5,508 bases of DNA, taken from contig JBAWVI010000063.1 of the NCBI GenBank assembly GCA_037147375.1, positions 1-5,508 on the forward strand, given 5' to 3'. The stretch comes from an archaeon (lineage in GTDB: Archaea; Iainarchaeota; Iainarchaeia; Iainarchaeales; CSSED10-239). Positions 2,012 to 5,184 of the stretch are shown here, piece after piece. The notes below the pieces were generated by a model, which saw nothing but the letters and a program-made list of their open reading frames with translations, was not told the origin of the DNA and did no database searches. The translations under genes were made by a program, and so were the position numbers. Numbering within the stretch: position 1 is the stretch's first letter; each line of letters starts with the position of its first letter.

Positions 2012-2082
2012 GATTCGAAAATTTGGGAAGGAAGAAAAACAAGTATTTTTATAATTTTTGGAATTACACATTAGATATAAAA

Positions 2083-2087
2083 GGGAG
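2083..2087 (+). promoter_or_regulatory. Shine-Dalgarno site (GGGAG) for the 2095 CDS
   Basis: AAAGGGAGAATAGATATG: GGGAG sits 7 nt upstream of ATG 2095. A TATA-like TTTTTATAAT at 2046-2055 lies about 44 nt upstream of the ATG, which would give a short SD-containing leader. Confidence 0.5.
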
Positions 2088-2094
2088 AATAGAT

Positions 2095-3681
2095 ATGCCA
2101 ATAAGACCTTTTGAATCTAAATTGGAAGTTTTTAAAAGAATTGAGAAAGAAAGAAAATCAGGAAAAGAGGTTTTTAGCCGTAAGTCCATAAAAGAATTAA
2201 AACCTGAAGAACTTAGAAGATTGAAGGAAATAAAAACAGGAAGAGAAGCTTTCCTAAAAGAAATCGGATTGATCGGAAATCACAAAGATACACATCTTAA
2301 TCTTCGAAGATATGAGATATTTAAAAAAAGAACAGAAAATTATCAAAGAATAATACAAAAGTTAGAAGGAGAACAAAAAGTTCTAGTTGATAAACTATAC
2401 AAAGAAGCATACATCCAGTTACTTGCTTCAAGATATATAAGAAGTATAATTCCAAAAATTCAAAATCAAGCAATGAAAACAAGAATACAAATTGCACTTA
2501 TGTCATCTGATTTTGAACTTATATCTTCTGGAGAATGGAACGGTAGAAATCATAGATTTGAAAATACAACTAGATCAAAAGATAGTAAGCTCTTTATGGA
2601 GACGCATAAAAAATTGTATGATATGTTTTATAAAACTAAACCTGAGAAAGATTGGGGTAGGGGAACAAGAAGAGTTCCATTAGAAGATTTCAGAAGAGCT
2701 CATTTCCCTCAAGAATTATTAAATATTGTTTTTAAAAAACATCCATTTTTAAAAAATCCAGATTTTAATAACAAGAAGTATTTATCTAGCTTTGAAAAAG
2801 AAATAAATAAGCTTGCAAATGAAATACAAGAGATGAATAATAAGCTTGAAGATACAGATAAAACTTTTGAAAAACATAGAAGTAAGATTTCAGATGTAAT
2901 TAATGCATCTTGGAGATTAAAACCAATTATCTGGGATCCTAAACTTGATATTGCGTTCAAAAAAAGATATGGAATTACATTAAGGGAAGTGTATAGTAAA
3001 TTTATAACTAATCATGATAAACCAACAATTCCAATATCAATAATTGATAATGTTCTTGAGAAATGCCTTCATCAAAATACTCTTTTAGTATTCCCTCTTA
3101 GAGGGAGTTTATTCAATTATTATCTAACAAGAGGGGTTGTTGAAGAATTAAAGAGATTAGATATTGCAAAGAAAGAACTTAATGCAATAACCTTAACCGC
3201 AGATACCTTCAAACATTGGAATTCATTATATAACATGGAATCATACACTTATTCAAACACATATCATGATATTGTTGAAAAAGCACCTGATATTGTTAGT
3301 GGACAATTAAATAAGATATTTCCCAAACATCCAAATGTTTCAAGAGTTGTTTTTATAGATTGGATAAGTAGTGGGTTCCAAAGAGATTACACTTATTATT
3401 ATATGAGAAAATATTTTTATGATAGAAAGAAATCACCTCCAGATATGGATTCTGTAACAGTTACTGAAGAACAAAAATTAAAATTTGATAATAGAGAGAT
3501 TGAACCAGCAGATCTTGTATCTAAGAAAACTGATGAAGTAACTCATGGAACAAATGGATATATTAATCCACAAAACAGTAAATGGGTTCTGGAAAATAAA
3601 GAAAAAATAAGAGAAATATTAGAAGTTGCTGGAAGATTATTTGTTAGAGCTGAACTAATAAATAGAGGTAAATTAAAATAA
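2095..3681 (+). CDS. Hypothetical protein, 528 aa, Lys/Glu/Arg-rich orphan with no recognisable domain
   Basis: Long uninterrupted ORF ending at TAA 3679-3681. The ORF track starts it at 2023, but bases 2023-2025 are TTG, not ATG. ATG 2095-2097 is preceded by AAGGGAG (GGGAG at 2083-2087, 7-nt spacer), so 2095 is the likelier start, giving MPIRPFESKLEV.... I see no Walker A, HNH, CxxC or Rx4-6H motif, and there is a single Cys (C324). The N-terminal ~300 aa are highly charged and helical in character (for example KEINKLANEIQEMNNKLEDTDKTFEK). The C-terminal ~200 aa alternate hydrophobic strands and helices. Confidence 0.8.
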   Translation: MPIRPFESKLEVFKRIEKERKSGKEVFSRKSIKELKPEELRRLKEIKTGREAFLKEIGLIGNHKDTHLNLRRYEIFKKRTENYQRIIQKLEGEQKVLVDKLYKEAYIQLLASRYIRSIIPKIQNQAMKTRIQIALMSSDFELISSGEWNGRNHRFENTTRSKDSKLFMETHKKLYDMFYKTKPEKDWGRGTRRVPLEDFRRAHFPQELLNIVFKKHPFLKNPDFNNKKYLSSFEKEINKLANEIQEMNNKLEDTDKTFEKHRSKISDVINASWRLKPIIWDPKLDIAFKKRYGITLREVYSKFITNHDKPTIPISIIDNVLEKCLHQNTLLVFPLRGSLFNYYLTRGVVEELKRLDIAKKELNAITLTADTFKHWNSLYNMESYTYSNTYHDIVEKAPDIVSGQLNKIFPKHPNVSRVVFIDWISSGFQRDYTYYYMRKYFYDRKKSPPDMDSVTVTEEQKLKFDNREIEPADLVSKKTDEVTHGTNGYINPQNSKWVLENKEKIREILEVAGRLFVRAELINRGKLK

Positions 3682-3688
3682 AAAAAGA

Positions 3689-3709
3689 ATAAAGGAAAAA
3701 ATCCTTTAT
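3689..3709. terminator. Bidirectional hairpin terminator between convergent genes
   Basis: Perfect 8-bp inverted repeat ATAAAGGA (3689-3696) / TCCTTTAT (3702-3709) with a 5-nt AAAAA loop, inside the 30-nt spacer between stops at 3681 (+) and 3712 (-). Read on the minus strand, the hairpin is followed by TCTTTTTTT. Read on the plus strand, it is followed by ATATTT. Confidence 0.5.
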
Positions 3710-3711
3710 AT

Positions 3712-4191
3712 TTAGGATATTAAGAATGGAGCTGGTTCTTTCTTTTGACCATCTTTCATTTCATCAAAGCTTTTCTTCTTGTTTGCGTTCTCTGGACTAT
3801 ATGATAAATCTGCAACAATCTTAAATCTAATTGTTACTTCTCCATCAGCAGTTCCCATTAAAAGAATTCCAGAAACAGCATGTATTGGATCCTTTGCAAG
3901 TGAAACATTAACGTCTCCAAAGTAATCATTATTAACTTTATTAAACTCACCTGAAACTTGTTTAATCTTAATTCCTTCAGAATAAGTTCTTTGTCTTAAT
4001 ACTCCTGACTTAGATGTTGCAATTCTAGTATCTTTAAGCTTACCTTCAGCAGACACCAAAAGAGCTTTCTTTATACCTTGTTCCTTAAATGCATTTTCAA
4101 TGCACTTAATAACATCATCACCATCATCAAGAACAATAGTTAAGAAATTGTCATTCTTACCCATTATTTCAGCAACCCCACTTTTTAACAT
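3712..4191 (-). CDS. PPC (DUF296) domain protein with a Lys-rich C-terminal tail
   Basis: 159 aa. FLTIVLDDGDDVIKCIENAFKEQGIKKALLVSAEGKLKDTRI, then IKQVSGEFN, DVNVSLAK and AVSGILLMG follow the PPC/DUF296 pattern: h-L-x-x-G-x-D-h...h..FA...GI..A.h.SAhG.h..h.h, then E-h-h-S-h-S-G, then HhHhSh, then hhGGHh. The last ~30 aa (SPENANKKKSFDEMKDGQKKEPAPFLIS) look disordered and basic. The start is ATG 4191..4189, with AAGGGT 9 nt upstream on the minus strand; an alternative start is Met10 at 4164. Confidence 0.6.
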   Translation of the reverse strand: MLKSGVAEIMGKNDNFLTIVLDDGDDVIKCIENAFKEQGIKKALLVSAEGKLKDTRIATSKSGVLRQRTYSEGIKIKQVSGEFNKVNNDYFGDVNVSLAKDPIHAVSGILLMGTADGEVTIRFKIVADLSYSPENANKKKSFDEMKDGQKKEPAPFLIS

Positions 4192-4263: not shown

Positions 4264-5184
4264 TCATTTCAAAATTGGTTTTATGTTTTTATTTTCTATA
4301 GTTCTTTTAATAATTTCTTCTACTATCTTTGTAATTGGAATTAATTTTACTTTATCTGATTTTGGGAAAATATGAGTAATTGTGTATATTTGTTTAATTA
4401 TTGATTTTTCAATTAAAGTAATTGCTTCCTTTCTCATAATTCCATGTGTACATAACACAGATATATTCCTTGCTCCCTTAAATGTAAGATAATTAGAATA
4501 ATTAACTATGTTTTCACCAGTATTAACACTATCTGAAACAATTAATATTTCTTTTCCATTAACTTCTTCATATATTTCAAATTCAGGTTTGTTATTACTA
4601 AATTCTTTTACAGGAAATATTGTTTTTGCATTTACTTTCTTAGCAACATCACGAGCAGAATCTTGCATTTCATGATCAATACAAGTAACTATTAAGTTTT
4701 TATTATTTGAAAAATTATCTTCAAGAACCTTTCCAAAGATTGTAGATACTGGAATATTATATAAAGGTATTTTTGTATAATAGGTTATTTTTGGATTGTA
4801 CAATCCAAAAGTAAATATTTTATCAATTGATACTTCTTCAAAGAATCTAGTAATTAAAGAAAAATTAAGCTTATACTCAACATCTGTTCTTATCTTTGTA
4901 TAAGGTAAGTAAGAAGTTATTAAGTATATATAATGAGCTCCTTCTTTCTTGATTGCATCACAAATAAACATAAGTTGCATTAAAGATTCATTTGCTGGTT
5001 GAGTCATATTATAAATTAGAAAGATAATCTTGTTGCTTACATATGATTCTACATCAACACTTGTTTCTGTTCCCATAGCAAACTTAACAGTTATATCTCC
5101 TATAGGGATATCAAGTTTATCAGCTATGGTTTGAGCAGTTGGCTTATCCTTTTGTAAAGCTAAGATCATGTACTCATCATTCAT
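4264..5184 (-). CDS. Ribose-phosphate pyrophosphokinase (PRPP synthetase, Prs) family protein, divergent with degenerate active-site motifs
   Basis: 306 aa with clear collinear similarity to Prs. MILALQKDKPTAQTIADKL...KFAMGTETSV...IIFLIY...QPANESLMQLMFICDAIKKEGA compares with E. coli [20 protein letters not shown]...RFSDGEVSV...IFIIQS...[22 protein letters not shown]. Later, ILIVSDSVNTGEN compares with VLVDDMIDTGGT, and CTHGI with ATHPI. The stop is TGA (4266..4264). An alternative start at Met6 (5169) would match the canonical Prs N-terminus. Confidence 0.8.
   Translation of the reverse strand: MNDEYMILALQKDKPTAQTIADKLDIPIGDITVKFAMGTETSVDVESYVSNKIIFLIYNMTQPANESLMQLMFICDAIKKEGAHYIYLITSYLPYTKIRTDVEYKLNFSLITRFFEEVSIDKIFTFGLYNPKITYYTKIPLYNIPVSTIFGKVLEDNFSNNKNLIVTCIDHEMQDSARDVAKKVNAKTIFPVKEFSNNKPEFEIYEEVNGKEILIVSDSVNTGENIVNYSNYLTFKGARNISVLCTHGIMRKEAITLIEKSIIKQIYTITHIFPKSDKVKLIPITKIVEEIIKRTIENKNIKPILK

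Follow-up and report, generated by a model that had tools for sequence, protein, structure and literature searches.

The described proteins with which the gene studied here may be compared are HPRT, represented by Escherichia coli Hpt and having the type I phosphoribosyltransferase (PRT) fold (PF00156), and the PRT-domain regulators, which include PurR and PyrR of Bacillus subtilis and GfcR of haloarchaea. With these regulators the likeness would be one of analogy: they combine a PRT-like ligand-binding domain with a part that binds nucleic acid, and their genes lie near those of nucleotide or phosphoribosyl pyrophosphate (PRPP) metabolism. The gene in question, hereafter the target, lies in a stretch of 5,508 nucleotides of archaeal DNA (assembly GCA_037147375.1, contig JBAWVI010000063.1), the whole of which is called the window. 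The target coding sequence (2095..3681, + strand; ATG start, 528 aa plus stop) encodes a basic protein in two parts, of a family not described before, identical to NCBI entry MEI8364605.1, 'MAG: hypothetical protein [archaeon]'. Uncultured archaea with small genomes rely on the salvage of nucleotides, and a large share of their proteins lacks annotation. The target contains a domain that is confidently folded, selectively maintained and unrecognised by the libraries, which suggests that known chemistry can hide in such organisms. Our leading hypothesis, to which we assign a probability of about 0.4, is that this domain is a PRT-like phosphoribosyl- or nucleotide-binding module carried on a basic helical arm.

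A small archaeal family with a conserved C-terminal domain

Neither the target as a single sequence nor the profiles matched Pfam, NCBIfam, PHROGs, PADLOC or the PDB chain sequences significantly, in agreement with the first-pass annotation of the window, which had recognised no family from the sequence alone. All target matches in PHROGs had E >= 0.015 and were confined to the coiled-coil region, and the anti-phage defence profiles of PADLOC-DB gave none. The absence of a P-loop, a Cys/His cluster and a HEPN motif, also noted before, was borne out: pattern scans of the protein found neither a Walker-A nor an RxxxxH pattern, and its single Cys is C324.

The same annotation had called the protein an orphan, which is no longer tenable. 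A word-indexed search of 5.8 billion proteins yielded four homologues (38-51% identity), and an HMMER profile search run exhaustively over 1.84 billion cluster representatives yielded 16 proteins at E <= 1e-3, all of them apparently from uncultured archaea. About five of these 16 are full-length relatives (38-53% identity to the target), and about ten are shorter or differently extended proteins that match target residues ~275-520 only. Scanning the GTDB species representatives revealed one genome with the target gene, which added one locus, and a metagenome scan added three more; a second word-indexed search, made with the domain alignment, returned two proteins only. The loci fetched for homologues are numbered (L001, L005, L008 and so on), L045 being that of a sister strain and L026 lying on a 977-kb contig. 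No relatives of the family were found among IMG/VR viral contigs, and a viral origin of the target was rejected on this ground. Within this very small family of low-GC uncultured archaea, which has not been described before, the target represents the long form.

The full-length AlphaFold2 model (pLDDT, the predicted local distance difference test score, 66.6) is helical over residues 1-324 and alpha/beta from residue 329. Together with the restriction of the distant homologues to the C-terminal part, this upholds the earlier description of the protein as bipartite. Residues 1-65 (2095..2289, +) form the best-conserved segment, which is Lys/Arg/Glu-rich, contains the motif FLKEIGLIGN and is 63-69% identical to the orthologues. 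Residues 66-275 (2290..2919, +) are all-helical and fast-diverging (31-46% identity), with long helices at 70-121 and 227-252 and a basic patch at 188-203. The C-terminal alpha/beta domain, residues 276-528 (2920..3678, +), is 45-56% identical to the orthologues and is also present in the short archaeal proteins. The target has a pI of 9.7 and a net charge of +29 (K+R 19.3%, D+E 13.8%), of which +22 is in residues 1-275. Two peptides that had been singled out, the basic GRGTRRVPLEDFRRAH and DYTYYYMRKYFYD, do begin at residues 188 and 431, respectively. Heptad-like helices had been proposed at 31-100 and 231-262; a crude heptad scan supported a stretch at 224-257, close to the second of these, and the first is helical without a clear heptad.

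Alignment A2 brings together the C-terminal part of the target and its distant relatives (17 sequences, 19-55% identical to the target). Residues P334, G337, G347, Q404, D422 and K477 are invariant in A2, G513 and R514 are nearly so, and the target holds all eight. These residues lie in the motifs FKKRYG, FPLxGSLFNYY, D-x4-G-x-T, EHQ and REMLxxxGR. Fixed polar and Gly residues such as these are typical of a ligand-binding or catalytic pocket. A profile built from short forms only matches target residues 236-521 with E = 1.3e-33 (hmmsearch), and the short forms too begin with Arg/Lys-rich helices. The AlphaFold2 model of the domain based on A2 is confident (pLDDT 86.3; pTM, the predicted template modelling score, 0.86), and its elements begin with three helices and strand LLVFPL; a helix, another strand, a beta-hairpin and two helices follow. 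After these come strand VVFID, one more helix and strand, and some small strands, and a long helix forms the C-terminus.

Two ideas about the relation between long and short forms did not hold. An insertion of ~210 residues into the short form, between 'GLIG' and 'FKKRYG', is unsupported, the second, N-terminal match of the short-form hidden Markov model having an i-E of about 0.3. Protein P0004 was rejected as a natural C-terminal-only form, since its full-length gene is broken by one in-frame TAA. The orthologue at L008:5689-7251 (and also those at L009, L010 and L024) had been catalogued as a 322-aa 'short form' and carries a single in-frame TAA at L008:5896-5898. Both flanks of this stop still align with the family, and the same stop is found in contigs from three or four independent sources; the interrupted orthologue may recently have become a pseudogene, or the gene may be split.

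Comparison of the domain with phosphoribosyltransferases

A profile of E. coli Hpt and eight diverse homologues (nine sequences) was compared with A2 by hhalign, which gave a score of 28.1 (P = 0.0018) over 95 collinear columns. The background was lower throughout: 100 column shuffles of the HPRT profile scored on average 12.9 against A2 (sd 1.9, maximum 20.8), the reversed HPRT profile 16.3 (P 0.14, 82 columns), and 13 unrelated families, taken from the fetched loci and from E. coli, 9.6-19.0 (P 0.045-0.9, 12-45 columns). The family-invariant residues G337, D422 and G427 align on the HPRT-invariant G44, D100 and G105, and Q429 aligns on Hpt T107. The APRT profile scored 18.3 against A2 (P = 0.067, 29 columns), covering the PRPP loop only and in the HPRT register, and 19.9 against the distant members alone (P = 0.039, 43 columns).

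The likeness extends to the arrangement of the domain. The order in the model, beta-alpha-beta-hairpin-(two helices)-beta-alpha-beta, is that of the PRT core, and the beta-hairpin between the second and third core strands lies where PRTs have their flexible loop. Two loops of the domain resemble by eye the pyrophosphate (PPi) and PRPP loops of type I PRTs. After the first strand comes a P/L-x-(R/K)-G-S loop that may correspond to the PPi loop; in the target this is P334-L-R-G337-S338 (3094..3108, +), in which P334 and G337 are invariant in 17/17 members, and the stretch FPLRGS aligns on LLRGS of Hpt within the alignment whose P value is given above and whose probability is 15%. At the putative position of the PRPP loop, the hydrophobic third core strand, which ends in Asp, is followed by (D/S)(S/T)-G-x-T. 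The pattern used to define a PRPP loop was four hydrophobic, two acidic and any two residues followed by [DST]-[ST]-G-x-[ST]; in the consensus of the family, D-x-x-(s/d)-(s/t)-G-x-T comes after a hydrophobic strand, and the invariant Asp is the one acidic residue. The corresponding stretch of the target, VVFIDWISSGFQ, has Q for T and is in register with the HPRT and APRT loops; its strand end and loop are I421-D422-W-I-S-S-G427-F-Q429 (3355..3381, +).

There are also clear differences between the target and HPRT. Where HPRT-type loops have two adjacent acidic residues and a Thr, the domain has one acidic residue and, in the long form, a Gln, and two extra helices precede the PRPP-loop strand. 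A hood is not recognisable; instead, the domain contains the 'EHQ' motif after the fourth core strand (E458-E-Q460 in the target; 3466..3474, +), an invariant Lys (K477, which is K208 in domain numbering; 3523..3525, +) and a long C-terminal helix with the G-R motif (REILEVAGR, with G513-R514 at 3631..3636, +). Finally, the target has an added basic helical N-terminal arm of ~275 residues.

Several observations weigh against kinship with PRTs. The 15% given by hhalign is low, and the HPRT comparison was picked after the motifs had been seen, so that its P value is optimistic. Most of the signal is due to the short, distant members, since a comparison with the long forms by themselves scored 17.9, and of the two canonical acidic residues the domain has one. 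With HMMER, PF00156 did not match the target, nor was there a hit at E <= 10 among the 17 members, and NCBIfam gave no significant PRT match for these members; the xanthine PRTase family matched one of them weakly (E = 0.15). A profile search of the PDB returned no PRTase. The Prs profile, which contains PRT-type domains, scored 9.6 against A2, which is background, and Prs was rejected as a PRT relative of the domain. Genomic context adds to these points: the Prs and PCC genes that neighbour the target (see below) were found around none of six distant homologues examined, and the adjacency of Prs is phylogenetically non-independent.

Structure comparisons point the same way. The full-length model was rejected as a basis for fold assignment, its pLDDT being too low and Foldseek giving noise only (KaiC, DnaB). 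With the confident domain model, Foldseek found nothing in the PDB at E < 0.001 and no PRTase among the top 50 matches; the best matches were lumazine synthases (E 0.0086), with template modelling (TM) scores of 0.24-0.40 and root mean square deviations of 5-12 A. Against BFVD nothing was significant, and the PRTases among the weak fold matches (n=3; ranks 13, 20 and 41) had E values of 0.14-0.38. Lumazine synthases and flavodoxin-like folds share with the domain a generic alpha/beta/alpha three-layer sandwich with a small parallel sheet; the motifs are not common to both and the TM scores are low. Lumazine synthase was rejected as a true relative because a profile of seven RibH sequences scored within the range of the controls (hhalign 16.2, P = 0.13, 77 columns).

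These results raise the possibility that the C-terminal domain is a new Rossmann-like or flavodoxin-like domain without specific kinship to PRTases, perhaps acting, through the basic N-terminal extension, in nucleic-acid transactions such as replication, repair or translation. The lack of a significant fold or profile match to any family would fit this, as would the generic three-layer sandwiches (lumazine synthase, LacI-type, RecA/KaiC folds) that are its best structural neighbours and the Arg/Lys-rich helices with which even the short forms start. The surroundings of some relatives would fit as well: two distant homologues lie beside the FEN1 gene, with FtsZ nearby (L028, L030/L031), and the L029 homologue lies among the genes for EF1-beta, aS21, a DnaG-type primase and a histone. 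However, FEN1 adjacency is confined to two lineages, perhaps mutually related, and is not seen for the long form, and the collinear, motif-to-motif HPRT match exceeds the 13 controls and the shuffles. We regard this alternative as the main rival of the PRT hypothesis and as only somewhat less probable.

According to the PRT hypothesis, residues ~276-528 would be a very divergent relative of the type I PRT core. The invariant P-x-x-G(S) loop and the Asp-(S/D)(S/T)-G-x-(T/Q) loop would hold the pyrophosphate and ribose-5-phosphate of PRPP, or a nucleoside 5'-monophosphate, with the invariant Q404 and K477 and with R514 completing the pocket. Residues 1-275 would serve as a strongly basic helical docking arm for nucleic acid or a partner protein, such that a PRPP- or nucleotide-binding module is delivered to, or regulated on, a polyanionic target. 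The module might be a PRPP-dependent transferase or a ligand sensor like PurR and PyrR. A ligand-sensing or atypical catalytic role would be at least as likely as classical base salvage, because the loop Thr has become Gln in the long form and only one acidic residue is left. Unlike what is known of the regulators, the arm contains no helix-turn-helix or known DNA- or RNA-binding domain recognised by Pfam or NCBIfam, and no sequence similarity to these proteins was detected. PRPP may be supplied by the adjacent Prs, a suggestion based on synteny among close relatives only; further context counted in favour of the PRT hypothesis consists of the RpiA, PyrBI and NT5C genes near two distant homologues. 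The weak PRTase matches noted above, three in BFVD and one to xanthine PRTase, also count in its favour. Since the hhalign probability is low, the long forms by themselves score only 17.9, the Prs family scores at background, HMMER finds no PRT model and the comparison was chosen post hoc, we hold the PRT-like core as a hypothesis and make no claim of membership.

A bolder version of the hypothesis would make the protein the founder of a new archaeal enzyme family, in which the arm steers a PRT-derived domain that uses PRPP from Prs to phosphoribosylate RNA, DNA or protein rather than a free base, and in which the paralogues described below (A3) are specificity variants. This we consider quite improbable. 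If the PRT link is true, the family is a very divergent branch of a well-studied superfamily, fused to an unusual basic arm, and it provides a testable ligand hypothesis for three related gene families in these loci. If it is false, the domain represents a small alpha/beta fold family that is new and deserves structural study. In both cases little practical impact is to be expected, as the family is tiny and confined to a few uncultured lineages.

Selection and expression signals of the target gene

The window is AT-rich (GC 0.21-0.32), and its largest open reading frame (ORF) spans 2023-3681 (+), being open from a TTG at 2023; translation from the ATG at 2095 gives the 528-aa product. This ATG is the correct start, because all full-length homologues start at the equivalent Met, with the motif MxPRxFEP. 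In the sister strain (L045), the target frame is intact, with 99.6% nucleotide identity and the same gene order. The ratio of non-synonymous to synonymous substitution rates (dN/dS) was 0.30 for the L011 and L026 orthologues, at dS = 0.10 (30 synonymous and 38 non-synonymous changes). Deeper orthologue pairs gave values of 0.29-0.35, read at a dS of ~1, which is near saturation.

A Shine-Dalgarno (SD)-like GGGAG (2083..2087, +) was read from the sequence 7 nt before the ATG. Further upstream, 35-54 nt from the ATG, is a 20-nt promoter-like element, AAGTATTTTTATAATTTTTG (2041..2060, +), made up of a purine-rich stretch and TTTTTATAAT, which resembles archaeal BRE/TATA sequences; the TATA-like box is at 2047-2056. 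The element is kept upstream of orthologues and aligns with the upstream regions of orthologues that are only 42-53% identical in protein. Its 15-nt core, AAGTATTTTTAWWAT, occurs once in the window and as a single exact copy in 12 of the fetched loci, always upstream of the target gene or its operon. The loci whose orthologue is broken by the TAA (L008-L010, L024) and the short contig L014 contain no exact match to the core. An SD and a promoter of its own had been proposed for the gene, and both proposals are supported, the core being conserved upstream of most full-length orthologues. At L026:9078-9991, the core sits upstream of an extra 299-aa ORF without Pfam family. It seems that here a gene has been inserted between the conserved promoter and the target orthologue, because this ORF lies downstream of the core and ends 9 nt before the orthologue.

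Could the ORF be spurious, or a decaying remnant without function? The target belongs to no known family, AT-rich genomes favour long Lys-rich ORFs, and one orthologue has an in-frame stop. On the other side, at least five genomes keep the protein over its full length at 38-53% identity, and 70 columns are invariant in the alignment of the full-length homologues. The dN/dS values of ~0.3, the conserved promoter and SD, and the confident fold prediction also speak against the idea, and we consider it effectively refuted. A lack of homologues combined with a frame not kept in sister genomes, which the first-pass annotation had named as signs of such an ORF, was not seen: relatives were found and the L045 copy is intact. 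From the dN/dS values, the intact sister copy, the SD-like site and the conserved promoter core, all read from the sequence, the target ORF is therefore judged to be a genuine gene that selection maintains and that has a conserved promoter-like element of its own.

The 30-nt spacer between the target and the convergent PCC gene contains a hairpin (3689..3709; ATAAAGGA / TCCTTTAT) of 8 bp (3689-3696/3702-3709) with a 5-nt loop. It is modest (-7.1 kcal/mol, z = -2.05). A bidirectional hairpin shared by the target and the PCC/Prs operon had been described; the convergence and the hairpin are there, but the T7 tract that follows it lies on the minus strand, because of which it looks more like a terminator of the PCC/Prs operon. 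RNA genes were detected in the window neither by Rfam nor by ARAGORN.

Gene neighbourhood in the window and at related loci

In the window and at L045 the genes are arranged in the order Aminoglyc_resit-type nucleotidyltransferase (-), 252-aa ORF (-), Asp/Glu racemase (+; TIGR00035, 1.5e-47), target (+), PCC (-) and Prs-like (-). The PCC/DUF296-domain gene (3712..4191, -) is a syntenic neighbour of the target, and the gene for the Prs-like ribose-phosphate diphosphokinase (4264..5184, -) is one in close relatives only. Prs adjoins the target locus in the window, L001, L005, L026 and probably L045; at the other long-form loci, 0-3 extra genes lie between the target and the convergent PCC gene, and Prs follows PCC in most. 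All neighbours had been described as nucleotide- or ribose-phosphate-handling folds. This was overstated: it fits the Prs-like protein and the nucleotidyltransferase, and it does not fit the racemase, the 252-aa ORF or PCC. The Prs-like protein scores 143 bits against a TIGR01251 family cut-off of 113 and is far under every equivalog cut-off, so the label 'degenerate' that had been given to it is only partly fair, because the family cut-off is passed. Its ribose-5-phosphate loop is ILIVSDSVNTGENI; canonical Prs enzymes have two adjacent acidic residues in this loop.

Among the window and its counterparts at L001, L005, L011 and L026, PCC is 94-98% identical, Prs 71-77% and the target 42-61%. 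The conservation of PCC is unusually strong beside that of the other two. Given these identities, the Prs/PCC association is synteny within one shallow clade. Whether related genomes keep these neighbours had been put forward as a check, and close relatives do, the distant homologues forming the exception noted above. Literature searches on the DUF296/Prs or PRTase context yielded nothing relevant.

The extra genes, which are absent from the window and L045, encode a 224-229-aa helical protein and one or two proteins of 355-375 aa. The latter (A3; L001:3558-5758, L005:12307-13374, L011:2994-5170 and L026:11595-12664, between the target orthologues and PCC) occur singly or as two in tandem, are 53-56% identical within a genome and have no Pfam or PDB match. 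Compared with A2, A3 gave an hhalign E of 6.2e-5 (score 39.3) over 108 columns, motif to motif, against a background of at most 18.0 for 15 controls and at most 21.0 for shuffles. Judged by this profile match, the A3 proteins are remote relatives of the C-terminal domain of the target.

This variability bears on the idea that the target belongs to a dispensable, fast-turnover accessory cassette (for conflict, defence or another niche) beside a conserved PCC-Prs pair, with PRT-like chemistry as its effector. The spread of identities given above, the variable content of 0-3 genes, including remote paralogues, between target and PCC, and the presence of the gene in one GTDB species representative only are in line with such a cassette. 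Decay is also seen, the L026 paralogue being broken into two ORFs and the orthologue at L008/L009/L010/L024 carrying its in-frame TAA, and genes of the types Fic, Bro-N, RelA_SpoT, SLFN_AlbA_2, UvrD-PDDEXK and AAA_14/DUF4143 are found near relatives. By contrast, a dN/dS of ~0.3 indicates purifying and not diversifying selection, no PADLOC or PHROG match and no family member on IMG/VR contigs was found, the short homologues sit in housekeeping neighbourhoods, and no conserved toxin/antitoxin-like or sensor/effector pairing is apparent. We therefore consider a cassette of this kind unlikely.

The two distant homologues mentioned above (L028:304-2139; L030:5742-7939 and L031:1187-3384) lie directly against the gene for the FEN1 flap endonuclease; one of them follows it on the same strand without a gap, the other is convergent with it with a 4-nt overlap, and FtsZ is near in L028 and L030. 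Another distant homologue lies among the NT5C, Fic, GluRS and PyrBI genes, and RpiA is found 4.5 kb from a further one.

At the left edge of the window, the gene for the Aminoglyc_resit-type nucleotidyltransferase (3-488, -; PF10706, E = 1.9e-16) is truncated; the L045 copy has its full length of 167 aa, and next to it comes a weak NUDIX match. The 252-aa ORF next to it (485-1243, -) has no Pfam, NCBIfam or PDB match and belongs to a family with 10 homologues (55-93% identity), some of them on contigs of 0.84-0.98 Mb. Between the window and L045, this ORF is 85.6% identical in nucleotides, against 98.5-99.6% for the racemase, target and PCC genes that flank it; because the ORF diverges far more than its flanks, this suggests a local recombination or allele replacement. 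The 252-aa ORF was rejected as a hidden member of the target family, as its 10-sequence profile gave hhalign E values of 0.19 with the family and 0.13 with A3. Common to it and these proteins are the start MPI(K/R)P, the loop GPGEG and the motif KEILDVTGRM, and the N-terminal resemblance alone remains.

A Pro-rich basic start is in fact common to several otherwise unrelated proteins of these loci, and is absent from Prs, PCC and the racemase. The A3 proteins start with M(T)PI(R/L)K and the 229-aa protein with MPPKPN (positions L001:2865, 3558, 4688), and the distant homologue P0009 starts with MPIERPK. Within the window, such starts are MPIRPF of the target (2095-2112) and MPIKPK of the 252-aa ORF (1226-1243, -).

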